A stretch of 64,000 nt of DNA from Takakia lepidozioides (Eukaryota; Plantae; Bryophyta): positions 33,542,001-33,606,000 of the forward strand of contig CM060733.1 in the NCBI GenBank assembly GCA_030704615.1. The letters run 5' to 3'. Each line of letters opens with the position of its first letter. Positions within the stretch are counted from its first letter, which is position 1. A model generated the notes under the pieces. That model worked only from the letters and a program-made list of their open reading frames with translations. It was not told the DNA's origin and did no database searches. A program made the translations under genes and the position numbers. Positions 4,635 to 41,035 of the stretch are shown piece by piece.

Positions 4635-5515
4635 AGTCAACCATGACCAAGAAGAAAAACCCTAATATATTATTTTACATTTATTCTAATGATCCCTTAG
4701 AGCCCTCTTAAATTGGAAAAAAAAAAAACTAAAAAAAACTTTAAAAAAAGAAACTAAATTGCTATTTACGTTCGTTGTAAGGATCCCTTATAGCGTTCTA
4801 AGCCGCTCTAAGGATTTCATAGAGTGGGAAAATAAATCGGTCAACCATGACGAAGAAGATAAACCTTAACATATTTTTTACATTTATTCTAATGATCCCT
4901 TGATATCCTTAGAGCCAATGTAAGGATTTGTTAGATTGGGAAAATAGAACAAGCTAAATTGCTATTTACGTTCATTCTAAGGATCCCTTAGAGCCGCTCT
5001 AAGCCACTCAAAGGATTTCATATAGCGGGAAAACACAAATAGCTAAATTGCTATTTATATTCGCTCTAAGAATCCTTTAGAGCTGCTCTAGGGGTTTTTT
5101 AGAGTGGAAAAACAGAAAAAACTAATTTGCTATTTACATTCGATCTCAGTATTACTTAGAGTAAGAAGATAAATTGCTATTTACGTTCGCTCTAAGGATC
5201 CCGTAGAGCCTCTCTAAGCCGCTCTAGGATTTTCTACAGCGAGGAAACAGTAAAAGCTAAATTGCTATTTGCTCTCAGGATGTCTAAGGATTTATTAGAG
5301 CGGGAAAACAAAAAAAATCTAAATGGCTATTCACATTTGATCCAAGCATTACTTCGAGCAAGAAAACAGAATAAACTATATTGCTATTTGCAATCGCTCT
5401 AAAGGATCCCTTACAGCCGCTCTGAGCCGCTCTAAGGATTTTTTAGAGTGATTAAAAAAACAACACATTCACTTTAAAGTTTAAGAGTTTCTTAGAATCA
5501 CTCTAAGGATTTTTT
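4635..5515. repeat. AT-rich degenerate tandem array (~65-100 bp units) with palindromic core
   Basis: Repeated CTAAATTGCTATTTACGTTCGCTCTAAGGATCCCTTAGAGCCGCTCTAAGCCGCTCTAAGGATTT-like units. The core GCTCTAAGGATCCCTTAGAGC is an inverted repeat. Confidence 0.85.
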
Positions 5516-6654
5516 ATTGCGTCATTGGATTGAATTAGTATATCAGATTACGATCAATAATATACATGTCATATTTGATGTATACATATGGATATATATA
5601 CAATATACGAATATGAACTCCTATATCAGATTGGACTGGTTTCAGCCCTGGTTTTCACAAAAAAAAATAAAAAAATGTATAGGGATTCGAACCCTTATAG
5701 CTATCCATTATAGCATACAAAATTATGGCTCAAAGGCCTTAAAGATTAACCATAAAGGTTAAAAACAATTAGAGATTTTGAAATATAATATGATAAATAA
5801 TTGGATTGAATGGATTTTGAATTTATTGAAATGATGAAGTCTGAGGTTGAAAACATGATATAATATAGTATTATACATTATACATTATATATTGATTTAT
5901 AATTAAAGTATTTAATACATATTATATTATTATATAACTATTTTAAATTATAATTTGTTAAATAAATTCGCTAAATATAGATAGTATGATTGAAGTATTT
6001 GAAGTTTTTGAGATGTAATACGATAGAAAACTTGATTGATTAGATTTAAATTGGAATGATGAATCTGATATTGAAAGCATGATATAAATTGATAATATAG
6101 ACATATTTATATTCAAATAAATAAATATATTATAATTTTTATTTTTAAATAAATATTTTAGTTTGTTCATTTATATAAATAATATAAATATTTAAGATTT
6201 TAAATTTTGAAATATGAAAATATAATGATAAGATATAAAGTGATATGAATAAATAATTATGTAGTAAGTAAAAATAACACATGATTGTAACTCATAATGA
6301 TTGATTTATGATAATGGATGGAATGATAATTGACTAGTTGATGGATAGAATGATAGTTCATTTATGTAGCGACGTCGTTAGATTATAGCTAGATTTTAAA
6401 ATATATTTATTTATTTAATATAATATAATATAATTCTTTTTTATACTTATTTACATTATATATGTAATTCTGATTATAATTAAATATTTATAATCTCTAA
6501 GTTGTATATACTATATTGATATCATGCTTGAATATCATATACACTATAGATTATGATTAACATTCAAGTGGCATAATCACAGTGTCATGAATTTTGATGA
6601 TTTTTTGAAAATATAAGATAGTGTTTGGTAGTTATCTGATAGTGTGTCAAATAT

Positions 6655-7715
6655 GTTAGAAGAAAATAAAATAAAACGAAACGAAACGAAAGAGAAAGAA
6701 CGAAGAGAAAAAATGAAGAGAAAGTTCTATTCCGCTGAGCAACTCACACAGAAATACAAAGAACGGAGATAAAAAAGAAACATAAACAAAGACAGAAAGT
6801 GACAGAAAAAAACAAATGAAGACTACCCAGAAGAACTTGGAGACATTTCTATTTTGCCAGAGAACCGAAAGAACAAAGAAACATAAACAAACAACAGAAG
6901 CAAAGAATGAAGACAAGCGAAGAGGAAAGAAACAAAACGAAAGAGAAAGAAAGAATGGAAAGTTCTATTTTGCTGTACAATTCACACAGAAATACAAAGA
7001 ATAGAGATCGAAAAGAAGCATAAACAAAGAACAAAAAAAGTGAAGAGAAAAAAAAATGAAGGCTATTCAAAACTAGGACTAGGAGACAGTCCATTTTGCC
7101 ACAGAACCGAAAGAACAAAGCAACATAAACAAACCAAAAAAGCAAAGAAGAAACACAAACAAGGAGGAAAGAAAACAAAACGAAATAGAAAGAACGAATA
7201 AAAAGTTCTATTCCGTTGAACAACTCACATAGAAATACAAAAAATAGAGATCAGAAAGAAACATAAACAAAGAACAGAAAGTGAAAGAAAAAACCAAATG
7301 AAGGCTACTGAGAAGAACTAAGAGACACAGAACCGAAAGAACAAAGAAACATAAACAAACAACAGAAGCAAAGAAGAAACACAAACGATGGCAAAGGAGC
7401 AGAATATTCTATCCAAAAAGCTTGCTTGCAAAAGAAAGTGAAGGAAATAATCCTCGTTCTGCATGCTTATAGAGTTTTCAAAGGAAAAAAAAGACAATAG
7501 AATGAAAGAGAAAAAAAAAGAGAAAGTTCTATTCTAACGAAAAGCTCACACAGAAAGACAAAGAATAGAGATTAGAAAGAAACATAAACATAGAACCAAA
7601 AGTGAAGAACAAAGACAAATGAAACTACTGAAAAGAACTAAAAAACATTGCCAAAAAACCGAAAGGACAGAGAAACATAAACAAGCAACAGATTGAAAGA
7701 AAAAACACAGAAACG
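6655..7715. repeat. A/G-rich low-complexity tandem array (~240 bp units)
   Basis: An AAAGTTCTATT..CTCACACAGAAATACAAAGAA..GAGAT-like motif recurs at ~6720, ~6960, ~7200 and ~7522. Confidence 0.8.
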
Positions 7716-8023
7716 CTTTGTGTGGGCGCTTGTTTTCATATGAGGTTGGTCCGGATTTGATCACCGGCCAATCCTAGAGCGTGCTGTCGGTGGTGAGGCT
7801 GGGGTGATGACCAGTCAGACCATCATTGTTTCTCTTATGGTGAGGCTGGGTTGATGACCAGCAAACCATAGGAGTGCTTGCGGTGGATGCAGGTGCAGGT
7901 TTATGTTACGAACCTAGTAGTCTAAGCCATAAGCCGCAACAGGTTCCCTACCCGGTTACCTTGTGGAAAGGGGGATTAAAGACAGGTTTACAACAGGTGT
8001 GGTTGTGAGTTTTCATCACGGAG

Positions 8024-9533
8024 GTGCCACCAGTTGCTGAGGAGAGTGTCGGTACAAGCACCAGCGATACTAGTGGGTATACAAGACGAGGTGTGCGGTT
8101 TAGGCCACCTTTACCTCCAGTGTCTTCTGAGGAAGGTTCAGACTCAGAGTTAGGAGGATTCTCACCGAGGGTGCAAGCCATTTCCGTGCCATTGTTGTGG
8201 GATACGATGGAGGTAATGTATGGAGCTACCAAAGGGCCACGTCGGTACTCTGGAGCTGTGGGCACTATCGAGCTTGATGATTTCATAATTTGATAGTTGG
8301 TGTGATTTGCAGCAGATGCGCAATCCACAACTGTTTACGCCTTTTATGGCGTGGAAGGGGCTGTTTCAGCACCTTGAGGGGCCGCCCATGGATGACTACC
8401 ATGAGTTTAGGCGGGGATATGAGGTGGAGATTGAGGAATGGCGGGTGTATTGGTCACCTGACTATGTCTCTATCACTAGAGACACAAGGGCAGTGGTGAC
8501 ACCGGCAGCTACACCGGCAGCTTCTGCAAGCAGTAATGGAACGTCAAGTGGAACATGAGCTGGGAAGTCCACCCAAGCTCCTACTGCAGCACCAACACGC
8601 GTGCCTGCCTTTAACCCAGTTGTGGAGTTCTTCGAGGAGTTAAGGAGAAACTAACAGGGGATAAGGACGGAGAAATTGCGGAGTTTGCAAGAGTTCCAAC
8701 GAAAGCCTGCCGAAAGTTTAAGGGAGGCTTATACGCGCATGAGGCGATTGATAAATGTAACCCAAGGGGTTACAGAAACTCAAGCAGTCCAATTCTGGTA
8801 TGGGATATTGGATAAGGAGCTGAGGAGAAGGGTGCGGGATACAACTCTCCTACAAGTGACCCAACCCACCTTAGCAAACGTGTTTTTGCTGGTAGAGCGG
8901 ATAGAGCTCAATATGGTGTAGGAGTGAGTGGTCATGGTGGGGTTTGGTAAGGAGACACAATGAAGTGGGGCTTCTAGCCAACAACAACCACTACCCCAAC
9001 GTGATCAAGGCAACAAAGGGGCTCAGACGAAGCCTAGGGAAGGACAGAAAGGATCTCAATTGCAGAGGTCACTTCCTTCATTCTCAGGCCAACAACAGTT
9101 GGGGGTGGCATGTTGGGATTGTGGAGGACCCCATGTTAAGAGAGATTGCCCGGAGAGATGCAAAGGGTCGGCACAGGCACAGCCTACACAACTACAGTGT
9201 GGGCATTGTGACAAATATGGGCATGAAGAGGACCATTGTTATGACTTGCATCCTGAGCTACGGCCAGGCCAGTTCCAAGGGAACAATGGTGGCCGAGGAC
9301 GAGGCAATGTAGTCCAGAGAGGTAGAGGAGGCAGAGGTCGCGGTGGAGGCCGTAACCAAAACCAAGGAGCACAAGGTCAAGGTCAAGGTCAAGGTCATGA
9401 CCAAGGCATGGTGGATAGGCTTGCCCAGCTAGAGCAACGTCTTGCTACCATAGCCACTACGCATGTTGCGCCAGCTCCAAGGTCTGAGGTTCAAGCCCCA
9501 CCTGCACAACCTCATATGCCTAGGGAAGACTAG
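8024..9533 (+). pseudogene. gag: Gypsy gag (capsid, two CCHC-type zinc knuckles, RGG-rich tail), disrupted
   Basis: Retrotransposon gag-like LQEFQRKPAESLREAYTRMRRL...FWYGILDKELRRRV; knuckles CWDCGGPHVKRDC and CGHCDKYGHEEDHC; GRGGRGRGGG tract. Stops at 8652 and 8919. Confidence 0.85.
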
Positions 9534-9949
9534 ATTGGTATGGGCTTCATGTGTGGAGCCCCACTTGCAGGACCATTGCATGTGGACTCTGCAACTGCTG
9601 TCACTCGAGCAGCAACGTGTGCTCCTGAGCCAAGACGATGAGATGTGGATTTTGATCCACAAAGGGGGGAAGCAAGTCGACAGACAAGGCTTCCACAGTC
9701 TTTTACATTGGCTGAGACAGTGCCAACTACGCCATCGATGGTACCCGCTCGCCCAAGTGTGTCAGAAGGAGAGCCACAAGTGCTAGTGGGGAGAATTGGT
9801 GTGGCTCGGGAATTGCCAATGGATGGTACTGCAAAGCAAGGTGTAGCCAGTACATTGTTGGGGGCGGCTACGACAATTTGTCAAACTCCATTGTTTTATG
9901 CCACGACAATTGCAATGCCGAGGATGCGGCCAGCTGCAATGTTTAGATT

Positions 9950-10260
9950 GGCTGCTGCAACACAGCCATTGATGTTGGGGAAAGCAGCAATTACAGGCTT
10001 GGGCCTTACAGAGGCGGATTTGGAGCCTTGCCCTTTCCAAATTCAAACATCTTTGGGCGGTTCAGAGAAGACACGAGGGATTACACGCCATGAGCTCTTC
10101 ATTCGATTGCAGCCAGATCATCCTACAGATGGCTCTGTCATGAAGCTAAAGCCATTGTTACGGACGCGATGTCTTATGATGTGCTTGTTGGTGGGGCTGT
10201 GTTATACCCGATGGGTTTTACTTTGGACTTTTGGGAGGAAACGACATCCTACAGGCCGGA
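9950..10260 (+). pseudogene. Retropepsin-like aspartic protease remnant (catalytic D[ST]G motif not seen)
   Basis: QPLMLGKAAITGLGL...FQIQTSLGGSEKTRG followed, after a frameshift, by the C-terminal YDVLVGG (DxLLG-like) motif. No DSG/DTG precedes QPLMLG, so it was probably deleted. Confidence 0.55.
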
Positions 10261-10659
10261 ATGGCAGTCAGGAGATGGCCGACGTGCACTGCTCCCAGTG
10301 CGGTTTATTGGGAATGTAACGGTGGATCATATGAACATGATGCCCACATTGGCTGCATTCTCAGGGGTGGTGGCTTGGGGTGGTGAGCTCTTGGAGGGAA
10401 ATAGCCATGCAGATGATAGGCCATCACCTGATGAGGACAAACAATTGGCATACAAGGCTGATTTGCTTCCTCATGTGCCTGTTCATATTCCACTGTGGGG
10501 TACAGTTGGGAATTTGCATCGAGTAGCAGGCGAGTGTGTGCACCAAGCATGGCAGGAGGCCTATCCAGTGGTGAGTGAGGGGAGTTCAGTGACATCACCT
10601 AGACCTCCTCAGTTAGCTCCTTTGGACACAGTGCCCATTACCTGGCAACCACCTGACTC

Positions 10660-11610
10660 AGGGATTTGTTTGCTAGACCTATTTGGAGGCATGAGCATTG
10701 GGCTTAAGCTTGCAGGAGTGTTGCAAACTAGGATTAAAGTACAAAAGTACTTGTATGTGGAGAAGGATGAGATACCTCGGCGTATTTCTATGCGTCACGT
10801 TGCCTTGCTCACACACCAGTACCCTGAGTTGCTGCCTCTCTCAGCAATTCAAGGGTACCAAAAGGCCTTGCCAGCAGACATTACCATGCTGGGGGCGGAT
10901 GATTTGGACCGGCATGATGCCATTGACTTGGTGATAGCTGGATGGCCTTGCCAAGGACACTCTCCCGCAGGTCATGGGAATGGCTTGCATGATGCACGAT
11001 CGCATTTGTTTTGGGAGATGTTGAGAGTGTTGTGTGACTTGCAGACGAGGCAAGTGCAACCTCTAGCCTATATCTTGGAGAATGTTCCTCTTACGAGGGA
11101 CTCTCGGGCCAGGGTTATGTCCAGTGTGCATCAGGTACGATCTTGGATTGGATCGGCGGTGCTATTGGATGCAGCAGTGGTGGGCATCGACCTCGATTGT
11201 GGTGGAGCAATCTTGCACCACCAGAGCTGCTCAAGAGAGCATATGATTCCATTCAACGGCCACCCAATCTCATGGTTGAGGGCATTTTGGACCAAAGGAG
11301 GCAACCACAGAGGGTGCGACATGATGACCATCCACCTCTAGCAGTGGTCAATCGAGTGGGGCAGCCACGTATAGCCTTGCCTACGCTCATGAGCTTTCCC
11401 TCGTCTCATGCTTTTCGAGACAATGGTCCTGGGTTGATTTGGGACAGTGTGCTACAGCAATTGGTGGAGCCCAATGCGGATGAGCGCGAGCGGGCAATGG
11501 GGTTTGTCACGGGCACTACAGCTGTGCCAGCTCTGTCAGAGGCATCACGACGCCAGGTGTTGGGTCAGGCAATGGATCTCAATTGCTTGACATGGGTCAT
11601 TGGCTTGTGC
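10660..11610 (+). pseudogene. Retrotransposon-borne C5 cytosine-specific DNA methyltransferase domain (DNMT3/DRM-like motif style), one frameshift
   Basis: Motif I LLDLFGGMS(I)G (~10670-10700); II YLYVE; III ADIT; IV IDLVIAGWPCQGHS (PCQ at 10946-10954); V GLHDARSHLF; VI YILENV (11078-11086). After LLDAAVVG and a frameshift near 11185: VIII HRPRLWWSNL; IX EPNADERERAMGF; X SRRQVLGQAMD (~11550-11580). Confidence 0.93.
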
Positions 11611-12099
11611 ATGGCTGAGCAACGGAGATTGCAAGCATTGGTGGCTACTTCTTCACTTCCATTGGATATTGCACCATCTCTGCCAACTGGGACGGTGGAG
11701 GCAGTGAGTGGGGGCGAGCACAGGATCATGGGGTGCAAACACCCATGGCAGATGTGGGATAAGATGCGGAAAGAGAGAGTCCTTGGATCTCTCAAGTAGC
11801 AATATGAGGAGTAAGGAGAGCCATACACTCAGGATCAGTTAGAGGCCAGGGTGGCCAATGTTTTTGAAGAGGTTGAGAATGTTTTTTGCTCAAAGGATGT
11901 TCTCAAGGTGGCTATGGCAGAGCAAGTGGAGGCTTCGCCACAGTCAGATTGGGTGAACAAGGCCCAAGAAGTTGCTATCTAGCAACCAAAGGATTCGTCT
12001 CCTACCTCCAAGCCTGGTGTACCCAAGGTTGCAGTCACTGAGGACAATTGGGAACCAGATGTTGGACCTACAGTCACCAGAGGAGAGAGACGGAGGATC

Positions 12100-13480
12100 C
12101 AGCAATTTCTAAGGGCTTATAGAAATTGCTTTGCTTTCAGTTTGAAGGATTTGGGGAGTTTGAAGGGTTAGGAGATTCGTATTGATTTGGCAAGTGACAT
12201 GCCAATCTTTCAAAGGCCCTACCGGTATAGTGACATGAAGAGGTCATTGATCCAGTCACGGACTATGGAGTTGTTCGAAGCTGGATTGGTGGAGTTGTCA
12301 GGCGGGGAGTATGCCTCGGCAACGGTGATGCCAGCTAAGAAGGATATCTATGGCAATTGGACAGAAAGAAGGATGTGTGGGGACTATCGTCATGTGAACC
12401 GTCAGACTAAGTCCGATAGATATGCCATGCCAACTCCAGATGAGATCTTTGATGCCATTGGGCATGCAAAGGTGTTTAGCACATTGGACTTGCGATCCGG
12501 TTACCACCAGTTGCCAATCAAAGAGGCTGACAAGCAAAAGACGACATTCTGGGGGATTGACCAACATGGGAAGAATTGCTTGTATCAATGGCGGTTCTTA
12601 CCGTTTGCGTTGAAGAATGCTCCTACAGAGTTTCAAAGGGTCATGGATAGGATTCTTGCGGGGCTAGACTTCGCCCGGTGCTACATTGATGACATCATTG
12701 TCTTTAGTGCTACGGTTGAGGAGCATGAGAGACACCTTCAGGTGGTGTTTGAGCGTTGAGAGCGCACGGGTTGAAACTGCACCCCGAAAGTGCAAGTTCT
12801 TCCACAATCAGACTGAGTATCTGGGCCACATGATATATCCTGGAGGATTGGGTGTTCAACAGACAAAGGTGGAGGCCATTGCATGCATTCCACGTCCCAT
12901 GGATGTGAGCAGAGTTCGTGCTTTCATGGGATTGGCAAATTACTATCGACGGTTTGTCAAGGGATTTAGTAGCATTGCAAAGGCTCTAACCAAGTTAACC
13001 AAGGTGGGTCAAGAGTGGCAGTGGGAGGAGGAGCAGGAGGAAGCCTTTGAGGAACTCAAGGCTCGATTGACTTCTGCACCTATTCTGAGGCGGCCTATTC
13101 GGGGGCGGCCTTTCCAGCTACATACGGATTGGAATATGCTGGGGATTGGAGCAGTGCTTACACATGTGGATGATGAGGGAAGAGAGTTCGTAGTGGCATA
13201 TGCTAGCCGCTCGAACCATGATGTCGAGGCGAAGTATAGTTCCTATGAAAGGGAGTGTCTAGCTGCGGTATGGGCAGTGGCACATTTCAGATGCTACCTC
13301 TATGGCAATCTCTTCACCCTTGTCATGGATCACCAACCATTAAAATGGTTGATGGAGTCAGACAAGCTTACAGGGAAGCTTGCACGGTGGGCACTTATGC
13401 TTTAAGAGTACGACTTCCAGGTGGTGCATCGAGCCGGTATTGTCAATCGGGATGCAGATGGATTGAGTCGTAATCCATGC
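12100..13480 (+). pseudogene. pol: Gypsy pol: reverse transcriptase and RNase H
   Basis: RT motifs RMCGDYR, FSTLDLRSGYHQ, LPFALKNAP, YIDDI, YLGH, FMGLANYYRRFV. RNase H motifs LHTDW..GIGAVL, YSSYERECLA, DHQPL, KLARWAL. Frameshift near 12760-12790 and a stop at 13403. Confidence 0.97.
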
Positions 13481-13564
13481 ACAAGCAAACGTGATGATAC
13501 TGGAGCTCGGTGGCATGGTGAGACAGATGAGGAGATGGTGCCAGGATAGCATGCATCGGCTTTT

Positions 13565-14930
13565 TTGTGCATTCTAGCAATAGGAGCTCAAGCTGGTCCA
13601 TCCCATGCGATTGGTCATATAGATAGCGTGCATGACGATCCAAAGACTAGTGAGGAGTTTGGTGGTGCTAAGGATGTGCATGAAGATGCAGCAGTGTTGG
13701 CATACATTCGTACCGGAGAGACAGCGGCCAGTGTGACTGCTAAGGAGAGGGATCGGGTCCTACAACGAGCTAAGAGGTTCAAGTGGGAGGAGACTCACCT
13801 ACTCCGGGTATGGGAGGATGGACGAGTAAGGATTGTGCCTCATCCAACACAACGAGCGCGATTGGTACGCCATGCCCATGAGGAGTTGGAATATTTTGGG
13901 GTGCGGCGCACTCATAGTTTGCTGCAAGGGCAGTATTGGTGGCAGGGCATGCACACGGATGTGCAACAGTTAGTGGCAAGGTGCATGGTGTATGATAGAG
14001 TGCGGGCTTCTTTCAATGTACCTACTCCACAATTGCATCCTTTACCCATTATGGGTTTGGGCTATCGTTGGAGTCTTGACTTCGCAGGCCCATTGCCACT
14101 AACTATTCGCCATAACAAGTATGTGTTGGTGATGGTGGAACATTTCTCCAAATGGATTGAACTGGTGGCATTGCCTGACAAAGTAAGTGAGGGGGCTGTG
14201 TATGCATTCTTAGATCGAATGCTTAGCCAATTTGGTGCTCCAGCCGAGGTACTCACGGACCAAGGGAGAGAATTCTTGGGGGAGTTTCAGGCTTTATGTG
14301 AGCAAGCCTTGATAGATCACCGCACTACTTCTCGGGATCATCCCGAGGCTGATGGCTTGGCGGAGAGAGTTGTTCAGATAGTCAAGAGAGGTTTGCGCAA
14401 GTACGGTTTGCAGAAGGGACACCTAGGAAATTGGGACCTTCAACTGCCTTGGCTAGCTATGGGCTATAGGTTCAGCAAACAAGCTTCACTTGCCTCCTTC
14501 TCACCTTATTTCCTTCTCTTTGGCCGAGAGCCAGATTTGTCTGCATTTATTCGCAGGGAGACTGTAGTAGTCCTCAACCTTGATGATTCGGAGGTATGGA
14601 CACAAGCATGTGCCCAGCGGGCAGAATTGTTCAAGAGAGTCATGCCTATGGCTTTTGAGAACCTTGCTATTGCCCAACATCGAGACACATTGAGGTACGC
14701 CACTATACGTAGAGGGGGATATCGGCCAGGTGTTCGGCGTTTCCACCCTGGGGACTATATGTATCTGTAGCAGACAGCACCTACGACTTTGGATGTCACA
14801 GCAGGCCGTGTGTTTCTAAGGGTCTGGGAGGTGTTGCCTTCAGGAGTATTGATTCTGGAGGGTCCAGATGACATGGTATGGAAGGACCATGTGCGCAATT
14901 GTGCGCCATGACACCTTCCACATGTGGATG
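13565..14930 (+). pseudogene. Gypsy integrase (degenerate HHCC zinc domain plus DDE core)
   Basis: AHEELEYFG...YWWQGM...CMVYDR (eroded HHCC); WSLDFAGP, LTDQGREF, GLAERVVQ (D-D-E); SPYFLLFGREP; FHPGDYMYL. Confidence 0.95.
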
Positions 14931-14969
14931 GGAAGATAGATCCCAACCTTTGCAGTGGTACCTGCAGGG

Positions 14970-15115
14970 TTGCGTTGCATGCTATGTGAGCATGCTGGTG
15001 GTGCCACGACCATGTTGGTGTGTGACAAATGCTCAAGGGGGTGGCACATGGGATGCTTGACACCACCATTTGAGGAGGTTCCTAGTGGAGAATGGTTGTG
15101 TCCACGAATGCCTTG
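14970..15115 (+). pseudogene. PHD finger (C4HC3) at the C-terminus of the integrase
   Basis: CMLCEHAGGATTMLVCDKCSRGWHMGCLTPPFEEVPSGEWLCPR; the last Cys (TGC) is one base out of frame. This fits the canonical C-x2-C...LxCDxC...HxxCLxPPL..VP.G.W.CP.C pattern. Confidence 0.9.
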
Positions 15116-15383
15116 GATAGAGGTAGTGGGGCATGACAGTGGTGAGGTTGACAAGTGATTCAAGGTCTAGCTAATGGGAGTTCAATGCCATGGACACCCA
15201 ATTGAAGCCATGGATTGCAGGAAGGCGAGTAACGATGGGGCTACTTTTGCACCCGGCCTCTTGATCTATTGACTTTAGATAGTGGGACTTGGGCGATTGA
15301 TGACCAAGTGATGATCTTATTGGGATAGATACTTGTCAGCTATCTGGTGTTAGAGAGACATAATCACCAGCTAGGGGGGCGAT

Positions 15384-15922
15384 TGTGGCATAGTTTTCTA
15401 GGATTGTGTGCTTAGAATGTATGGTGGACAGCGATGTATGTTGTGGCACGATGCTTAGGTACATGACAGCTGTCATGGTTTTAATCATGGTTAACTAGAA
15501 TTACCTACTTCTAGTTAACTATGATATTTTGGATATTTATATTTGTATTTTGTGTGTTGGGACTTCATTTGGTCTCACATGCCAAGTGAGGTGTCAAACC
15601 TCACTTGGGACATGGGAATGGGTTTTCCCCTTGTGAGTGTTGAGGAGGGCTCATCTTCTTGTAGTTGAGCCTCCATGAGCCTCTCTCACCTCCATAGCTC
15701 TAGGTATTGAGAAAGAGTGTGTTGAGGGCTTTGTAGGGTGGATTCCCTTAGCAAGGGTGCCCTGGGCTTGACTTAGTTTATGTGATTGAGTGGATTCAAG
15801 AGTGGAGTGTTTCCATTGTGTTCACTTTCATTATCATTGTGGCATAGCTTTCTAGGATTGTGTGCTTAGAATGTATGGTGGACAATGATGTATGTTGTGG
15901 CATGATGCTTAGGTGCACGACA
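15384..15922 (+). repeat. 3' LTR of the DNMT-Gypsy element, with an ~85-bp direct repeat at both ends
   Basis: Starts TGTGGCA just after the PPT. 15384-15468 is repeated at 15838-15922, which ends ...CACGACA and abuts the AT-rich satellite. Confidence 0.75.
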
Positions 15923-17345
15923 TAAATAATAATTTATATCCTTTTATTTTCCCACTCTTAGGACTCTTTAGGGGCGCCCTAACGAGTCCTAAGGGCAATT
16001 ATAAATAATAATTTACATCTTTCAATTATCCCCTTCTCAAGACTCCTTAGGATGGCCCTAAGGAGTCCTAAGGGCAATTATAGATAATAATTTATATGTT
16101 TCTATTTTCCCCCTTTTATAACCCTTAGACTGCTAGGGCGATTATTTATGTCTTTCCATTTTTTTCCTCTTAAGACTGCCCTAAGAAGTCCTGAGGGTAA
16201 TTATAAATAATAGTTTATATGTTTTTATTTTCCCCCCTCTTAGGATTCTTTAGGGCGGCCCAAAGGAGTCCTAAGGGCAATTATAAATAATAATTTACAT
16301 CTTTCAATTTTCCCCTTCTTAGGACTCCTTAGGGCGGCCCTCAGGAGTCATAAGGGCAATTATAAATAATAATTTATATAGTTCTATTTTTCCCCTCTCT
16401 TAACCTCTTAGGTTGCCTAAATGGGTCTTAAGGACAATTATTTAAGTCTTTCCATTTTTTCATCTTAGGAATGTCATATGAAGCTCTAAGGGTAATTATA
16501 AATAATAATTTATACGTTTTTATTTTCCCCTCTGTTAGGACTCCTTAGGGCCGTCCTGAGGAGTCGTAAGGGCAATTATAAATAATAATTTATACGTTTA
16601 TATTTTCCCCCTCTTATAACCCCTTTGCCTAAACAGGTCAATTATTTATGTCTTTCTATTTTTCTCCTCTTAGGACTCCTTAGGACTGTCCTAAGAAGCC
16701 CTAAGGATAATTATAAATAATAATTTATATGATTTCATTTTTCCCTCTCTTAGATTTCTTAGGGCCGCCCTAAGGAGTCCTAAGGGCAATTATAATAAGG
16801 TCTATTTCAAAAAAGGATGTCAGTGCATTACAAATGGATGTATGAACGTTTATCGAAAATAAAGTTTTTTTTCTCAATTATAATAAATGATGACAACCTA
16901 CCAATATTGTCGATACATACCAATAAATAATATATGTGATTCATAAATATAATGACCAAAGTTGATACATTTATTATACTAGTTTATATTTTTTCTATTT
17001 TTCTTAGGAAATATTCTTTTCTTTTAGAGTTATAAATAATAATTTACATATTTTCATATTCCCCCCCTTAGGACTTCTTAGGGCAGTCTTAAGGAGTCCT
17101 AAGGGCAATTATAAATAATATCTTACTATTTTTCTATTTTTAACATAGGTATTAACATGTAAAGGTTTATTTCAAAAAAGGATGTCAGTGCATTACAAAT
17201 GGATGTATGAACTTTTATCGAAAATAAATTTTTGTTTTAATTATAATAAATGATGACAACCTACCAATTTTATCGGTATATGCCAATAAATAGTATATGT
17301 GATTCATAAATATAATGATCAAAGTTGATACATTTATTATAGTAC
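15923..17345. repeat. AT-rich tandem array (~75 bp units) with palindromic core, plus two copies of an ~180-bp block
   Basis: Repeated TTAGGACTCCTTAGGGCGGCCCTAAGGAGTCCTAAGGGCAATTATAAATAATAATTTA-like units; AGGACTCCTTAGGG/CCCTAAGGAGTCCT is an inverted pair. Block 16797-16978 is repeated at 17162-17341. Confidence 0.88.
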
Positions 17346-17409
17346 CTTCGGGACAAATCACCACAAGGTACGATTCATCCCTCTTACCATTTCTGTAAAT
17401 CAATTGTTC

Positions 17410-19815
17410 GTAGGATGTTGCACATTGGAACCAACTGACACAGTGACATAGTGCATCTGAACAGTTGTCATTGTACATGTTGATGGTTTTCGACGAGTGG
17501 CTGAACGGTATATCAGTTGCGTACATCATATCCGCTAGGAATAAGACAACAGACCTGGTGCCGTGGATGACAGCCTTGCGTGACCGACTCCACGCAGATA
17601 TGCCGACTAGGCGACCCAATGCCTTCATTGTCATTGATGCGGACGCTGAAATCAACGCTATAAGGTGAGTCTTCCATACCTCAATAGACACCCATTGTCG
17701 AAGTCCTCTGGCATGCAACTGTCGTCATAGTGTGCTTTGGCAGAGTCGCGTGCGATAGTTCCCTGAGAGACTCGTATGCGCGAGTCTGCTGGCAGACTAG
17801 ACTCGGACCAAGTCACGTGGGCAAGCCCGACTCGCTCGAACCAAGTAGTCTCTGGCAGACTGGCCCGGCCGAGTCCGCCAGAAGACTCGCAGGGGCGAGT
17901 CTGTTGGCAACCCTTCATGGGTCTGCTGGCAGACTTGGGAGGGAAGTCAGCCCGCCAGACCCGCTAGGCAGTGTCTTGCGACCAAGTTCGTGTAGGGTTG
18001 GTGTGGAGTCTGTTTTGGCTACTCGGCTGGCAGACACGCCTGCGCCATTTACCCTGGCAGACTCACATGCGCAAGTCCGTTGCCAGACTCGACTCGGAGA
18101 GTCCGCTGCTAATCGTGTGTGGGCGAGTCCGCATGCAGCAACCGGACTAACTCCGCTGGCAGACTGCGTGGAGACGAGTTCGCTGGTACACTGAACGGGC
18201 CCGAGTCCCGCTGGCAAACCGCCATGTGGCATCTGCCACAAAGGACCCGCAGGGCCAAGTCCGCTGGCAAACTCGCCAGGTGGCATCTGCCACAATACTC
18301 GCAGGGCCAAGTCCGCTGGCAAACTCCGCCAGGTGCATCGCCACAAGACTCGCAGGGCCGAGTCCGCCTGCCACGCTTCATGGGTTCTGATAGCAGACTT
18401 AGGAGGGGAAGTCAGCCCCTCCCACACCCGTAGGCCGTGTCTTACCACCAAGTCCGTTTAGGGGTTGGTGTGATTCTGTCTGTTGAGGTCTCCAAACACT
18501 CGATGGTGTCCACCGACCGGAGTTCCCTCTGAAAGTGCATCATGTGGATGTGTTATGTGCAGGGTTTGCTTTCAAAAGAGTCCTCATTTTCCTGTGCCTT
18601 TGGCATGTCCGCAAGGCATGGGTAAAGAAATCATGCCAGAAGACCAAAGATTCCGTCACAGCAGCAAACGTGTTGAAGGATATGGAGACCTCACCATACT
18701 GTAGAGGTAGACAAGCGAAGCAAGATCCCCAAAAAAAAAACACTTCTATGGGTTGCCAAAACAATCAGGGACATGAGAAAGAAATATCATAATGCCCGGG
18801 AATTTTTAAAGTACATCGACAAGGAATGGTCTCCTAAAATAGCAATGTCACTGATGTACTGCTGCTCGTCATGTTTTTTCCACACATGCCCAGTCAAGAC
18901 ACAAATGCTAGCATTGAGGCATACCATGGAAACTTGAAGGCTAGACTGAGGATGGGGGAAGGCAAAATGACTGGTCGAAGAGTCGATTGGCTAATATGGG
19001 AACTCACGGGCCGTGTGCTCACACACTACTGGTACGCAATTCATTTGAAGACGCATGGGTTCATACGCAATGACAAACAGGGAAAAGTACATATCTATAA
19101 GCTCTGTGCTAGCGGCCAGGGACATTCCAACGAGCAATGTGACTCTAACCCTTGTGCTAAGCAGCAATCACCCAGACACAACCTACATTGTTTACAACCC
19201 TGGATCGGATTGGGCTTCTTGCACTTGCCCATGGCAAATGAAAGATATTTGTGCAAACACCAAGTGAATGTGCTGAAGTTGCTTTCATCCCGACTTGCAA
19301 GATGGACTCATAGTGCGTGCATGTGGCAATGCACTCGGAACCATACATGGAGGATTGCATAATCTGATGTTGGATAAAACGACTGTCGCAGGGGAGGTTT
19401 GGTGCGATGGACAGACCTGTGGAGGATTATGACTTTGCACCCCCTCGAGGAACCGTCTACGTTCCCACTAGTATGGCCGAAGAATGGTCAGATATACTTC
19501 GTATAATGGGTGATAACAAGTACCTCGAGACACATGTGCTGTCGTGCCTTCGAATCTGTAGAGGGCAGCTTATTGATATCCCCCCCCCTGGCCAAAAGTG
19601 CTGCTGGGATGCTACATCCTCATGCAGCAAAACCTTTCCGACCTGTTGACGACAATAATAATTTGTCTCTGAAAAGGAAGAGAGATTTCGTCGAAGCATG
19701 GAAAACCCGACCCAGTCTGCGGAGAATGCGCAATAGGGTATATGCCCCAACACCTGCAACGAAAATATACTCTAGAATTGTTAAGGTTTCAGACCGTTGG
19801 GCGGGACCCAAGTAG
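17410..19815 (+). pseudogene. MULE (Mutator-like) transposase with SWIM zinc finger, spliced, 5'-truncated and frameshifted
   Basis: LYMLMVFDEWLNGISVAYII...FIVIDADAEINAIR, then a GT-AG intron at 17665-18562, then LCLWHVRKAW, DTNASIEAYHGNLK, RRVDWLIWEL and the SWIM-like ASCTC...LCKH. Confidence 0.85.
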
Positions 19816-20639
19816 ACAGCATACTCACACAGCAAAACACATGTTTATGCCATCATATTCCATGCAGAGAAATAAAAGGTCCACAATCTGCTTGAGAGTG
19901 CATACATGTTGCATCATAAACAGCCTGGAAGTGCATTCCATCAGAGCTCAGAGCGCCCCCCACGCCCATTTGCGGAAAGACTGGGCATTCTGCTCAACAG
20001 ACCGCGGAATGGCCAAACAGACTACTAAGCAGACTGCACAAGTACAGAATAAAACACTGCCAAGTCTGCTAATGGTTTTCGGCTAACAGACTGGGTGGTC
20101 CAGCAGACATACAATATGGACTGACTGTGTGGTCTTCTACACTGTCCATCGAACTGCTTCCATGAAGCGTACCCACCCAGATACGGAGCCCAACTGCACA
20201 CATATACACTATGCTTCAAAGTGCCACACACTCTGCCGAGCAGACTGATGAGCGGCCAACAGACTGCGAGGCAGACTGGTCCAACACGACGGAGACCGCC
20301 TTGTAGTCTGCTAACAGTAGTTAATAGTAGAACCAAGTAGTCTGCCCAGTAGGACGTGGGGTGTTTGTCTACTGACTGTTATTGTTCGGATTGTTCGGCC
20401 CTTGTACGACTTCTTTTGACGAACTTGCATAGGTGGGAACAGTATGAGTGCATGTAGGCCTTAATCTCAGAAAATATTACATACATTCAGAATGTAAATT
20501 GAAACAACATTGAATGTATATATTTATTTCCTCAAGGGAGCAGTTTTTCTGCATCGTCCAAACCACGGCGGATATACTTTACACACTGCAATCGTTGCAG
20601 TAACGGAAACCTGAAATTAAGCCACCTTCGTGTGAAGGC

Positions 20640-28029: not shown

Positions 28030-31000
28030 TCACTCCAAGAGCCATAGTGTTGGAAAACTGCCTTCGCATCCTTGATGCTCCCACATTTGGCATACATGTC
28101 AACGAGGGCATTGTTCAGAATCACATCAGGTACAATTCCAGCTTTGACAATGAAACCATGGACCTCTTCCCTTTTCCAGAGCTGCCAGGCTTGCCCTTGA
28201 TGCTCCCACATTTGGCATACATGTCCACTAGGGCATTGTCCAGAATCAAAATAGGTACAATTCCAGCTTTGACAATGAAACCATGGACCTCTTCCCTTTT
28301 CCAGAGCTGCAGGCTTGCCCTTGATGCTCCAAATTTGGCATACATGTCCACGGGGCATCCAGAATCACATCAGGTACAATTCCAGCTTTGACAATGAAAC
28401 CATGGACCTGATCTTCCCTTTTCCAGAGCTGCCAGGCTTGCCCTTGATGCTCCCACATTTGGCATACATGTCCACGAGGGCATTGTCCAGAATCACATCA
28501 GGTATAATTCCAACTTTGACAATGAAACCATGGACCTCTTTCCTTTTCCAGAGCTGCCAGGCTTGCCCTTGAAGCTCCCACATTTGGCATACATGTCCAC
28601 GAGGGCATTGTTCAGAATCACATCAGGTACAATTCCAGCTTTGACAATGAAACCATGGACCTCTTCCCTTTTCCAGAGCTGCCAGGCTTGCCCTTGATGC
28701 TCCACATTTGGCATACATGTCCACGAGGGCATTGTCCAGAATCACATCAGGTACAATTCGTGCTTTGACAATGAAACCATGGACCTCTTCCCTTTTCCAG
28801 AGCTGCCAGGCTTGCCCTTGATGCTCCCACATTTGGCATACATGTCCACTAGGGCATTGTCCAGAATCAAAACAGGTACAATTCCAGCTTTGACAATGAA
28901 ACCATGGACCTCTTCCCTTTTCCAGAGCTGCCAGGCTTGCCCTTGATGCTCCCAAATTTGGCATACATGTCCACTAGGGCATTGTCCAGAATCACATCAG
29001 GTACAATTCCAGCTTTGACAATGAAACCATGGACCTGATCTTCCCTTTTCCAGAGCTGCCAAGCTTGCCCTTGATGCTCCCACATTGTGCATACATGTCC
29101 ACGAGGGCATTATCCAGAATCACATCAGGTATAATTCCAACTTTGACAATGAAACCATGGACCTCTTCCCTTTTCCAGAGCTGCCAGGCTTGCCCTTGAT
29201 GCTCCCACATTTGGCATACATGTCCATGAGGGCATTATCCAGAATCACATCAGGTATAATCCCAGCTTTGACAATGAAACCATGGACCTCTTCCCTTTTC
29301 TAGACCTGCCAGGCTTGCCCTTGATGCTCCCACATTTGGCATACATGTCCACGAGGGCATTGTCCAGAATCACATCCGGTACAATTCCAGCTTTGACAAT
29401 GAAACCATGGACCTGATCTTCCCTTTTCCAGAGCTGCCGTGCTTGCCCTTGATGCTCCCACATTTGGCATACATGTCCACGAGGGCATTGTCCAGAATCA
29501 CATCAGGTACAATTCCAGTTTTGACAATGAAACCATGGACCTGATCTTCCCTTTTCCAGAGCTGTCTGGCTTGCCCTTGATGCTCCCACATTTGGCATAC
29601 ATGTCCACGAGGGCATTGTCCAGATCTCAATCAGGTACAATTCCAGCTTTGTCAATGAAATCATGGACGTGATCTTCCATTTTCCAGAGCTGCCAGACTT
29701 GCCCTTGATGCTCCCACATTTGGCATACATGTCCACGAGGGCATTGTTCAGAATCACATCAGGTACAATTCCAGCTTTGACAATGAAACCATGGACCTCT
29801 TCCCTTTTCCAGAGTTGCCAGGCTTGCCCTTGATGCTCTCACATTTGGCATACATGTCCACGAGGGCATTGTTCAGAATCACATCAAGTACAATTCCAGC
29901 TTTGACAATGAAACCATGGACCTCTTCCCTTTTCCAGAGCTGCTAGGTTTGCACACGCACTGCAAATGCACACAAATGTGTTGTGGTCGGGCTTCATCCT
30001 TCCCCCATCATTTGGTCATCATAGGTCTCCAAAGGCTGCATCCCGCACCACTGCTGTGCACATCCTACAAGCATCGCGCTCCACGACACCACATCTTGTT
30101 CAGCCATAGTGTTGAACACTCCCTCCGCATCCTCAATGCTCTCACACATATTTGGCATACATGTCCACGAGGGCATTGTTCAGAATCGTATCTGTTACAA
30201 TTCCAGCTTTGGTGATGCAACCATGTACCTCTTTGCCATTTTGCAGGGCTGCCAGACTTGCACATGCACTGCAAACGCACAATCTCGTTCAGCCATACTG
30301 TTGAGCACTCCTTTCGCATCCTCAATGCTCCCACATTTGGCACACATGTGTCCACCAAAGCAGTCATGTTCAGGATGACATCTTGTACAATTGCAAATTT
30401 GGTGATGTCACGATGGATCTCTTTGCCCTTTTCCAGGGCTGCCAGGCTACCACACGCACTGCAAACACACACAAACGTTATGTGGTTGGGCTTCACCCTT
30501 CCCCCATCATTTGCTCATAGGTCTCCAAAGCCTCCATCCCACGCCCCTGCTGTGCATACCCTGCAAGCATCGCACTCCACGACACCATATCTCGTTTAGC
30601 CATAGTGTTGAACACTCCCTTGGCATCCTCGATGGTCCCACATTTGGCATATATTTCCACCAGGGCAGTGTTCAGAATGACATCTGGTAATCTGACAGGC
30701 ATTCACCTTTTTGTCTCTGTTGTCCCACCATTGACTGGGATCAGAAAAGTGTTCATTCCTCACCTTCTCCTCATCTCTTGTACATGTTTTTGGATACTCT
30801 CATGTTGTCACATTGGCAGTATCATGTCAAAGTCACTCCAATCTATCAAAGATTCACTCAACCAGCTAACTTGCAGAATTCAACATGGAATTTAGGGCCG
30901 ATTCTGATAAGAGGGAAAAACAGGGTGAAATGTGTTGAAGAAGGTGCCCTCATCGCCTGATTTTACCAATTGTGCCGCTGCTGCTGCGGCTTCTAGTTGA

Positions 31001-31462: not shown

Positions 31463-34400
31463 CTAGACCACAGCACAACTGGCCTGGTACCTCCCATGTG
31501 GAGCTTGCCTCCGCCTTCTACCATTTCGCCTTTGCCTTGCAGGTGCATTCAAGTTGGCAATGGCCAATTCATCTGCCTCACTCAAAGGAACACAAACAGC
31601 AGGCTCAGTCATGATGTTATGAGGAATTTCAGGAGGCACCATGCCTACATAAGTGTCTCCCGCACCCAGTGCCACTTCTGTAATATCGTGAACCACTCGT
31701 CGGGATCGAGGGTCCTTGTGAAGGACCACCTTCCAGTTCCCTCGTGAACTTTTTTCATCCGAGAAAAAACTTGCTCCACCTGACTAGGGAATGTCCAGGG
31801 CTGCTCCATCCGAGGTAACATGCGACTGAAGTCAACCAAGAGAAAGCCATAATCATCTCGTTTCATGGTGGCATTCCGGCCCACCATGTGTGACCTCACC
31901 CATCTACACAAACAGAATTGGGCGAAGAATTCCGTAATCCAGTTGAATTATTTCTCTTACAACACCCACATATTCCAATTGGGATAACACTCGTCTGGAC
32001 ATACCTGCACTGTTTTCGCTTTCCTGATGGAATACTTGAGCAACTCCAGAATCAAATGTCACCGTGTTGTGGCGCCAGTCCCATCACGTATTGCTCGAAA
32101 GTGATTGCCGTAAGCATACATGGACTTGAAGCCCAAGGACTGTACTGCTGGTGGTATACATAAATGGCATATGTCCAAATCATAGGACTCACCTGAACTC
32201 ACCTTGCGTTGGACAGCACCTTCAATCCATTCATGGAATGGAGCCAGTAAGCGCATATCTGTTGGGTATGGAATTTCTCCATTGTGGTGGTCCTGGTCTT
32301 GTCCACAAAGGAATGTTGTTCTGAACTCAGTGCGGGATGCTTCTATGAGTGCCATCTCCTCTCATAGGCCCTGTCCAAATGAGAATTGAAATTAGGATTA
32401 CAGCTTATACCATTGGCAGAAATGAAACACACAGGATATGATAAGCAACATACTTACTCAAGGAATGGTTTCATGCAATCTGTGTTGTGCAAAATATACT
32501 CGTGTGCACTGTCTCGTTCTTGAATGGTGAGGACTCGTACACTTCCCAATCCTTGAACCACCTCCCCACTAACTGAGTCTTCTTCATTGGAGTCCCACAC
32601 CCTTCGGCTTGTAGCATGAAATTCAGCCATATACTCAATTAGAAACCCTAGGGCCTCATCCAAAGCATACCCTTCCGCCATGCTCCCTTCAGGTCGGCTC
32701 ATATTCCTTACATAGCCTTTTAATGTCTTCATATACCGTTCCATAGGATACATCCAACGGCTAGACACAGGACCACACACCTCCAATTCGTCCACAAGGT
32801 GTACAAGCAAGTGAGTCATGACATCAAATAATGACGGAGTGAATTCTTTCTCCAGCAGACACATAGTGATTGCAACATCTTCTCTTAGCTTGAGCAGCTG
32901 GATTAATGGTCTTTGCACACACTTTTCGGAAGACTCGAGAAAGCCTCATAATTGCCATCCGTGGACCCTTTCCCAATACCCCTCGAATGCAAAGAGGTAA
33001 AATCTGCTGCATCATTACATGGTACTCATGGGTTTTCATCGTAGACAGTTTATTGTCAGCCACATGTTTCTGGAATGTGGCAGCATAACCTGTGGGGGCC
33101 TTTACTGCAGCCAACGTTTCCAAAAACAACACCTTCTCATCTTCAGTAAGAACATATGGGGCCAAAGGCTTCACACGGTTGAGAGGGATGGGGTCTCAAC
33201 CACAAGTGTTCACGAATGACATTTAGTTCCATATCCTTCCTAGATGTGGTTGTGTCCTTCTCCCCAAGAATGGTTCTCAGCACATTCTCACACAATTTTT
33301 TTTCACAATGCATCACATCCAGTGTGTATCGGATAAGTAAGTCTTTCCAGTATGGCAATTGGTTCAAAACAGTGACCCGTTTCATGCCATGTTCCTTTGA
33401 AGGGTCTTGTTTTCCCCCCTCAGCCCCTCCCATTGCGAGATACAACTCTCTGGCTGTAGCCCGGTCAAATTGCTCACTTGCAGTGACCACCATAGGAGCT
33501 GCTCTATGTTCCACATGTCCATTAAAGTGGGATGAGTTATTCATGTAGGGATGAACAGCAGGCAAGTATCTCCTATGACCAAGATACAAAACTTTTTTGC
33601 ATGCCTTGGAGTACCTGGAATCAACATTAGGGCCGCAAGCTGGCAGGCCTTGTATCCCCCGTGTGCGCATCCTGCTAGCAACCCATAAGCTGGAAAGTCG
33701 TGGATTGACCACATCAAGATGGCCCTCATGCGAAATGACTGTTGCCCCACTGGGCTGCTTCCATCCAATGCCTCCACACCAACTTCCCACAACAATTTCA
33801 GTTCATCCATAAGGGGCTGCAGATAAACATCTGCATTGTCATTTCCCACAGATTGTGGTCCAGGAATCAATAAAGCCAACATCGTGAAAAATGGCTTAGT
33901 ACACAGCCAGGATGGAAGATTATAGTTCACCAACATGACAGGCCAAGTTGACCATTTGTTTGATTTATCACTGTGAGGATTGACACCATCCCATGCGAGA
34001 CCCAATCGCAGATTTCTGGGGTCCGCTGCAAACTCAGGCCATTTTTGGTCAATGTGGGCCCAAGCCTTGCTGTCTGCTGGGTGCCTAACCAAGCCATCCT
34101 GACTTCGATTCTTAAAGTGCCATGACATTAACTCTGAGATGGACTTGGCTTTATACATTCGAAGCAGCCTTGGAATGATAGGGAAATGTCGAAGGACCTT
34201 ACGAGGTACTGGTGTCTTCGTACCCACCACATAACGACATGCCTGACATTTTGGACAAACCTCCAAATTCTGAAGCTCCCTTCTGAACAACACACAACCT
34301 TTCGGACATGCATGTATACTCTCGTAATGAAGCCCGAGTTCCATTATGAGTTGTTTTGCCTCATAGTGGACTTTGGCAGCAATTGTCTGCTGGCAACAGT

Positions 34401-40270: not shown

Positions 40271-40289
40271 TTAGCCCTCTCAATTGCCT

Positions 40290-41035
40290 CGTTCAAAGTC
40301 TTAGGTGGCTTCTCCTTCAACTTCCGTCTGGCCCATGGGGCCAGTTCCGTCACAAAGTTGAAGACCATTTCTGGTTCTGCCATTTCCGCGACTTCGAGCC
40401 TGAACATATCCCCGAATGTCATCCGTTTGCTTCAGATTCCTCATCTTGTCCCGGGCGAGCCAGGACGCGTTGAGGGGCACAAACTGTCTCTTCATCAGTT
40501 CCTTGAACCCACTCCAGTTCAAGGTTTCCGGGATTGGACCTTGGTCGTGAGGCGTTTCTGCTACCATTGTTGAGCATAGCCCCTCAAATAGGTGGGAGCC
40601 ACTTCCACTCGATCCTCGTCACTCAACTTGGCCGCCCGGAAATACTGCTCTAGCTCCAAGAGCCAGGTGTTGAGTGCCTTCCGATTTCGGACGCCCTCGA
40701 AGATTCCGGGTTCCTTAGGCTTCACCTTAAACTTTGCCTCAGTGGAAGTGGCATTAGCCGCCTTCAACACGTCTTTCAACGTCCCGCCAAACTGCGCCAA
40801 CAACCCTTCCCAAAAGGCTGCCGGCATGGGAGGCATCTGTTGGCCTGTCGGAGCTCTCTGGAATTCCTCGGGCTCTGACTCCTCAGATTCCTCCCGTTCT
40901 TGAGCGGCCTCATTTTCAAAAGCATGCATCGCTTTCTCAAATGGCCGCTTCGGTGACACGTCGCCCCCATCGGGCTCACCAGGATCATCATCTTTCGGGC
41001 CGCTCCGCTTTCGCTTTGGCTTGCCTGACCCCATG
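40290..41035 (-). pseudogene. gag: Chromovirus gag
   Basis: KPKEPGIFEG.RNRKALNTWLLELEQYF...YLRGYAQQW; WSGFKELMKRQF...ARDKMRNLKQT. Frameshifted. Confidence 0.85.

Follow-up and report, generated by a model that had tools for sequence, protein, structure and literature searches.

A family of bryophyte Ty3/Gypsy retrotransposons with a DNMT3-like methyltransferase domain, a conserved stop codon and junction-type ends

Introduction

Retrotransposons that encode a C5 cytosine DNA methyltransferase (DNMT) are a kind of element known since 2018. In Klebsormidium nitens, KnitGypsy-Dnmt3 combines a Gypsy pol with an intronless, non-rearranged Dnmt3-related domain under purifying selection (PMC5890265; here and below, what we say of published work refers to the accessible parts of each source), and its repeats are split as in DIRS elements (PMC5890265, Fig. 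4c legend). Its authors place DNMT, reverse transcriptase (RT) and RNase H (RH) in one open reading frame (ORF; peer-review file of PMC5890265) and describe the element as an acquisition in the K. nitens lineage (PMC5890265). SymbioDIRS-Dnmt3 carried out de novo CG methylation in yeast (PMC5890265), and the EpiLTRs of Cymbomonas and Euglena carry DNMTs sister to DNMT4, together with an adenine methyltransferase and a chromodomain (10.64898/2026.05.21.726589). Here we analyse a 64,000-nt stretch of the Takakia lepidozioides genome (assembly GCA_030704615.1, contig CM060733.1, positions 33,542,001 to 33,606,000, forward strand; hereafter the window), which holds at 7717..15922 (+) a 5'-truncated, dead copy of a bryophyte Ty3/Gypsy family with a DNMT3-type domain.

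Why a retrotransposon should retain a silencing enzyme has been an open question since 2018, partly because the hosts are hard to work with. The family described here occurs in Marchantia polymorpha, a genetic model, which makes self-methylation testable; five methyltransferases are listed for Marchantia, none of them DNMT3-like (PMC5784723). A first-pass annotation of the window, made from the sequence alone, knew of no characterised family of this kind in embryophytes, and the literature likewise yielded no report of the family in land plants, nor of its stop codon or junction (subscription journals and Repbase lay outside the scope). The accessible parts of PMC6453930, PMC11244446, PMC9516144, PMC8616336, PMC6673714 and PMC8557442 do not mention it in land plants, and six Marchantia gene identifiers of the family had no literature match. 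A 2026 preprint speaks of 'streptophytes (Gypsy-DNMT3)' (10.64898/2026.05.21.726589), and its supplementary tree might include land plants. Surveys relying on paired long terminal repeats (LTRs) with target duplications (PMC6317226, methods) would miss a family with split ends and no LTR pair. New here are the occurrence in land plants, the conservation of the stop and the ends of junction type.

Results

A methyltransferase domain shared across a retrotransposon family

Between a protease remnant and the RT, the window carries six DNMT motifs on the plus strand in canonical, non-permuted order, as the first-pass annotation had reported: DLFGG (10676-10690), PCQ (10946-10954), ENV (11078-11086), HRPRLWW (11185-11205), ERERAMGF (11482-11505) and RQVLG (11551-11565). 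Motifs I, IV and VI lie in the N-part (10664..11182, +) and motifs VIII, IX and X in the C-part (11185..11630, +), which starts after a frameshift near 11183. The coding sequence occupies two open frames (10094-11341 and 11038-11799) with no intron-sized gap, which bears out the earlier description of an intronless domain with one frameshift. The proposed check against PF00145 succeeded in part: the N-half matched (E 1.3e-12, 48 bits, cut-off 22), and the C-half alone had no match in the Pfam scan. Among solved structures, a profile of relatives matched DNMT3A best (E 1e-25), then DNMT3B and DRM2 (2e-15), with HhaI at 4e-8, and the predicted structure of the natural relative P0171 (pLDDT 93) matches DNMT3A with a TM score of 0.71. 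Judged by this profile and by the fold of that relative, the window domain is a DNMT3-type, non-permuted C5 methyltransferase, in keeping with the DNMT3/DRM likeness first noticed in its motifs.

The catalytic Cys and Glu are invariant in the profile of 20 divergent natural relatives, which argues for catalysis, and they are kept in 61/69 and 70/74 of the locus copies, respectively. Between the window and Sphagnum-type copies, the DNMT shows a dN of 0.28-0.29 and a dS of 2.7-3.1, the latter near saturation, so that dN/dS is roughly 0.1. Judged by these comparisons, the domain is under long-term purifying selection across the family. Copies within the subfamily have a pN/pS of 0.51-0.66 in the DNMT and of 0.45-0.48 in RT, RH and integrase (IN), as expected for decaying copies.

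The domain is widespread. Of 40 matches to the DNMT N-half, 21 are named proteins, from Marchantia (16), Calypogeia (3) and Sphagnum (2), with PCQ present in 17/21 and ENV in 20/21; the top proteins of these three genera share 62-69% identity with the DNMT N-part of the window. The 16 matching protein clusters of Marchantia polymorpha include some with all catalytic motifs, and a search with a protease-DNMT relative returned 280 clusters at E below 1e-30. A metagenome scan gave 145 relatives, and the locus counts are drawn from the best 80 of these 145. RT lies downstream of the DNMT in 59 of the 64 loci with room for it and within 2.5 kb upstream in none, and a protease lies upstream in 42 of 55 (window included in both counts). 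In run X1, possibly the source sample, 42,530 contigs overlie the element, the DNMT included, a figure that reflects many diverged copies and is not a copy number. Taken together, these sequence matches indicate that the DNMT is a family trait of bryophyte elements rather than a one-off capture.

The DNMT stands ahead of RT in bryophytes and Closterium, and between RH and IN in Chlamydomonas eustigma, Monoraphidium, Cymbomonas and many further proteins. In the DNMT tree the window groups with Marchantia, Calypogeia and Sphagnum in a clade of nine rows (SH-aLRT 100); the type with the DNMT after RT forms one group in both the DNMT and the RT tree (support 92 each). Separate DNMT and RT phylogenies, as first suggested, recover the same main groups; they were built without the suggested Klebsormidium, DRM, CMT, MET1 and host DNMT3 sequences. 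They are quick trees without bootstrap, of 59 and 54 hand-chosen rows (five short RT rows dropped) and with one clear outside RT, and with this sampling they speak to co-inheritance of DNMT and RT, but not to whether the clade is monophyletic or in which direction the DNMT moved. No named Klebsormidium sequence appeared among the matches of the family protein searches.

Several further observations concern family members. Beside the first copy, loci L054, L055 and L058 hold another DNMT and protease segment in opposite orientation, which suggests insertions of this same family that are nested or inverted. Two chlorophyte-type polyproteins, P0233 and P0336, have an added G-patch domain, located in P0233 between DNMT and IN. 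An algal-type retrotransposon contig filed in a bacterial metagenome-assembled genome (L083, 1-10362; GC 59.5%), likely a eukaryotic contaminant in the bin, encodes RT-RH-DNMT-IN-PHD in a single 2,152-codon frame and ends in a B-A junction motif (repeats A and B are described below). The viral contigs L081 (924-1463) and L082 (1500-2002) hold distant DNMT relatives (30-37% identity) and have no match to retroelement domains.

A conserved stop codon between DNMT and RT

In the window, the C-part of the DNMT and the RT lie in one frame, and four stops separate them. In 49 of 50 anchored loci, the codon aligned with the TAG of TAG CAA CCA (11980..11988, +) is likewise a stop (37 TAG, 12 TAA; GAG in the remaining locus), and CAA follows it directly in 50/50. 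Counted over distinct linkers, a stop stands at that codon in 45/46 and at any other codon in at most 7. All 50 loci belong to a single subfamily, which matches Sphagnum fallax model P0035 and includes near-duplicates, so they were counted as one lineage; in 12 loci of other subfamilies, which were more degraded, the stop was not located. From motif X to the protein end there are 97 residues in Marchantia P0008 (1,278 aa, colinear with locus L009 in one frame) and 99 in Calypogeia P0014, and Sphagnum-type loci have 99 to the stop. By the shared stop and these matching distances, ORF1 consists of gag, protease and DNMT. The DNMT had first been placed in the polyprotein, inside pol; its position between protease and RT stands, and the conserved stop parts gag-protease-DNMT from RT-RH-IN-PHD.

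The stop context in the window fits in full the plant readthrough consensus UAG CAR YYA (PMC2754532), and 11980..11988 is likely a recoding site between ORF1 and pol. RNA folding 3' of the stop gave a similar long-range stem in 3/3 sequences, but with z-scores of -0.5 to -1.3, and the stem was therefore given no weight. An origin of the stop by CHG hypermutation of a Gln codon was ruled out, as other Gln codons are stops in 13/69 and 10/79 copies versus 49/50 here. One chlorophyte-type element has gag-pro and pol in overlapping frames, with the DNMT in pol, and a Gag knuckle lies upstream in only 5/70 chlorophyte-type proteins. The bryophyte arrangement would likely raise the DNMT to Gag abundance, and from the codon context we lean towards RT-RH-IN-PHD as a minor product of readthrough at UAG CAA CC(A/C).

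Split terminal repeats and a candidate integration junction

Instead of an LTR pair, just a repeat of 87 bp was found in the window, with copies at 15382 and 15836. Complete relatives are built as A1-ORFs-polypurine tract-B1-A2-B2, and this A…ORFs…B-A-B plan recurs in the window, which keeps B1-A2-B2 only, and in several subfamilies. The polypurine tract (15373..15381, +) lies directly 5' of B1, and a AGGGGGGCG-type tract is found at the same place in relatives. B1 (15382..15468, +) ends in CATGACA and shares 93% identity with B2 over 87 bp (7% divergence). At the B1-A2 junction CATGACA-GC-TGTCATG (15462..15477), two inverted element ends abut with a 2-bp spacer. A2 (15471..15835, +) starts with TGTCATG, and its position and the B-to-B spacing (454 bp) are as in L029 and L040, which keep A1. 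B2 (15836..15922, +) is the last terminal repeat and ends in CACGACA, the natural 3' end of the element.

Of the coordinates first proposed, 7720..15922, the 3' one is exact, since B2 ends at 15922, and the 5' one is a truncation, not a natural element end. A 5' leader remnant (7717..8209, +) adjoins an A-rich satellite and A1 is absent; repeat A has a single match in the part of the window searched for it (5001-20000). Sister-contig depth changes across 7686 from ~4,200 to ~675,000, and three contigs continue with different sequence before 7717.

Among 15 5' ends of relatives (13 distinct flanks), 14 begin with TGTCATGACC, none has B upstream and none shows a full A+B unit. Relatives have TG…CA ends, a polypurine tract and, in 4/4 independent complete insertions, exact 4-bp target duplications (TACA, CATA, TGTG and TGTT; chance ~0.011 each). 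The B1-A2 spacer is 2 nt in 7/7 junctions of the subfamily, window included, and reads GC in four. One chlorophyte-type contig, a single example, has a CACGACA-GC-TG end ~125 nt after its polypurine tract. By eye, no tRNA primer-binding site was evident after A1, and the window contains no tRNA gene. Three of the four insertions with target duplications show a single B; L034 (B-A-B) and L047 (B only) are one and the same insertion, so the single-B form is either derived or an assembly collapse, and a 'B-only' end as a separate integration product was rejected for at least this insertion. Lone B repeats, some of them inverted, also occur in or beside other copies (L015 3679-3793, L016 3669-3783, L057 1948-2060) and may represent the ends of nested elements.

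Since the polypurine tract lies ahead of B1 rather than A, the left end cannot be set by a primed linear end; because the tract primes at B and the insertion begins at A, we infer that integrase opens a junction in circular or redundant cDNA. It is fairly probable, judging from these ends, that the substrate would be a B-GC-A junction of abutted ends in a cDNA that is circular or terminally redundant, yielding A…ORFs…B-GC-A-B. DDE enzymes act on abutted inverted ends with a short spacer in the circle junctions of IS3 and IS30 and in foamy-virus LTR-LTR cleavage. The likeness to our junction lies in these same two features and is an analogy only.

Remaining domains of the element and its surroundings

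The first-pass assignment to Ty3/Gypsy agrees with the order of protease, RT, RH and IN, with an RT nearest to Ty3 and with a DDE integrase; two other features usual for the group, complete LTRs at the two ends and a primer-binding site, were not found. The gag remnant (8210..9530, +) has Cys/His zinc-knuckle-like motifs near 9120-9260 and several stops; it is colinear with Marchantia P0008, shows a median identity of 66-68% to related loci and had no match in the Pfam scan. The aspartic protease remnant (9950..10300, +) has a frameshift near 10140, and the catalytic D-S-G motif of the protease of Marchantia relatives was not found in it. RT (12172..12756, +; PF00078, E 1e-20) carries YIDD at 12682-12693 and is broken at its end by frameshifts, and its nearest solved structure is Ty3 RT (E 1e-30). 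It is followed in Ty3/Gypsy order by RH (13031..13441, +; PF17917 and PF17919, E 1e-32) and by the DDE integrase with zinc-binding domain, core and C-terminal part (13832..14910, +; PF17921 and PF00665). Median identity to related loci is 74% for RH and 70% for the integrase zinc finger. No tyrosine recombinase family was among the Pfam matches of 11 window pieces and 22 relatives, and the rve integrase was present. With 15 in-frame stops on the coding path and at least six frameshifts, the copy is dead, as it had been called at first reading.

Pol ends in a PHD finger (14973..15104, +; PF00628, E 5.8e-11), which, like the conserved stop and the split repeats without an LTR pair, goes beyond the first-pass annotation. 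Its nearest solved relatives include the PHD fingers of CHD4, KDM5, PHF21A and AIRE, a type that binds unmethylated H3K4, and none of the 73 family PHDs matched has a Trp two positions ahead of the His. By this resemblance, the window PHD is likely of the type that reads unmethylated H3K4.

A six-exon MUTYH adenine DNA glycosylase gene occupies 59922-63998 (+) and reaches the window edge. It shares 65% identity with a JGI protein that groups with Ceratodon, and the N-terminal MAPTTRS is common to Ceratodon; its tree leaves the placement open among non-seed land plants. Read from this gene, whose nearest proteins are moss-like, the host is an embryophyte and probably a moss, consistent with the land-plant origin first proposed. 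A second, degenerate Ty3/Gypsy element lies at 37700-41100 (-), with a distant RT (36% identity) and a CpG ratio of 0.88, a much weaker depletion. At 32450-34400 (-) there are broken frames, which we take to resemble a CACTA/En-Spm transposase. Tandem repeats flank the element, with A-rich units of ~240 bp on its 5' side (6675-7710) and, directly 3' of it, ~79-bp units with a CCTTAGG…CCTAAGG palindrome (15920-17140). Further repeats comprise 125/128-bp tandem units (28070-29940) and three near-identical 239-bp units (2165-2930).

Discussion

The reading we favour, with a rough probability of 0.55, is drawn from these sequence features and holds that the protease frees a DNMT3-type enzyme in the particle, that this enzyme methylates the new cDNA and that the PHD finger guides insertion. 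The gag-protease frame runs into the DNMT and ends at the conserved stop, which would place the enzyme at Gag level and likely lead to its packaging; RT-RH-IN-PHD would be the minor product, most likely through readthrough past the UAG. Released by the protease inside the particle, the DNMT would meet the cDNA there, and a new copy would arrive already methylated, with its own expression limited or with a likeness to host chromatin. Integrase would open the abutted junction of the cDNA, and the PHD finger would steer insertion via the H3 tail. The conserved stop suggests selection on the amount of enzyme, which is a clue to function, and the structure of the ends suggests that the element integrates by a route unusual for a DDE integrase.

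Several observations weigh against this reading. In closely related copies the DNMT is decaying no more slowly than the RT, and CpG depletion of the element (ratio 0.44-0.54) is no stronger than that of the neighbouring CACTA-like remnant (0.38). The KnitGypsy-Dnmt3 enzyme gave no methylation in yeast, a result its authors called inconclusive (PMC5890265). A symmetric two-junction circle predicts A-B-A…B insertions too, and 0/15 5' ends have B upstream. DNA evidence for the stop comes from two lineages only, and Closterium-type relatives have no stop or break between DNMT and RT. The context in Sphagnum-type copies, CAA CCC or close variants, fits CAR YYA in part, and most of these copies have an ATG 6 nt downstream of the stop; a pyrimidine tract with AG lies 3' of the stop in both lineages.

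The last two features bear on how the stop is passed. Splicing of a subset of transcripts, as for the intron between GAG-PROT and RT in Ogre (PMC6317226), or reinitiation at a downstream AUG could replace readthrough, and either would leave the DNMT at Gag level. The tract and the ATG would suit these routes, and the stop segment is left out by gene predictors in 4/4 land-plant models spanning DNMT and RT. Against them, both lineages keep the RT in the frame of the stop even with a length difference of 18 nt, TAG CAA CC is identical between lineages though synonymous sites are saturated, the window lacks the ATG, and the predicted skips begin at different places in each model. We regard a bypass other than readthrough as doubtful, with splicing unlikely and reinitiation very improbable.

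The main rival to the favoured reading, itself rather unlikely, is that the DNMT is selected without acting on the element's own cDNA: it would work in trans, with host chromatin or other transposons as its targets, or serve as a non-catalytic DNA- or RNA-binding module of the particle. An amount at Gag level would exceed the need of methylating one cDNA, and the inactivity of the Klebsormidium enzyme in yeast would fit such a role. The invariance of the catalytic residues among the divergent relatives speaks against it, as does the fact that the domain remains fused in the polyprotein at both of its positions.

That the ends are those of ordinary LTRs, rearranged after insertion, with a normal linear cDNA integrating, is improbable. 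TG…CA termini, polypurine tract and target duplications are hallmarks of LTR elements, and, as L034 and L047 illustrate, the 3' block does indeed collapse, be it post-insertion or during assembly; what argues against rearrangement is the recurrence of the B-A-B plan with a constant 2-nt spacer, the lack of a full A+B unit at any 5' end and of an evident primer site, and the same repeat plan noted in Klebsormidium (PMC5890265). It is extremely improbable that a host DNMT cDNA was captured once, in this copy (the outcome the first-pass annotation had said would overturn it), or entered it as a nested insertion, given the same domain order in Marchantia, Calypogeia, Sphagnum and many loci, host-species contigs that cover the DNMT like the remainder of the element, and a GC content with no step across the domain.

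A broader picture can be offered tentatively: an ancient LTR-less Gypsy clade, ranging from chlorophytes to mosses and liverworts, whose DDE integrase would open the abutted junction of circular cDNA and whose DNMT3 would sit between RH and IN in chlorophytes and before RT in streptophytes. In bryophytes, a leaky stop would load particles with active DNMT that silences the new copy in advance, and such elements may supply DNMT3 activity in Marchantia.

Among known systems, KnitGypsy-Dnmt3 is the nearest. In the window family, too, the Gypsy coding region contains a Dnmt3-like domain that is intronless, non-rearranged and under purifying selection, and the family shares the DIRS-like split direct repeats, which mark it as a relative of a known family rather than a fresh capture. 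By these sequence features the window element is probably a relative of KnitGypsy-Dnmt3 that works like it. We do not file it under that name because the single ORF of KnitGypsy is lacking: the bryophyte DNMT is in frame with RT but split off by the conserved stop. The window family also differs in living in land plants, with relatives spanning liverworts, mosses, Closterium and chlorophytes, a distribution that questions a Klebsormidium-specific capture; PHD finger, target duplication and junction are absent from the accessible text of PMC5890265. SymbioDIRS-Dnmt3, SymbioLINE-Dnmt and the EpiLTRs are likewise retrotransposons with a C5 methyltransferase, and belong to other RT classes or DNMT clades. 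Elements of the DIRS order share the A1-ORFs-B1-A2-B2 layout but use a tyrosine recombinase (PMC8557442), whereas in the window family a DDE integrase goes together with a polypurine tract, inverted TG…CA tips and target duplications of 4 bp. A translation break between Gag-protease and RT-RH-IN also occurs in Ogre (Tat lineage) and in other plant Gypsy elements with two ORFs (PMC6317226); the break in Ogre is a long intron spacer, whereas in the window family it is a single in-frame stop with the DNMT upstream of it.

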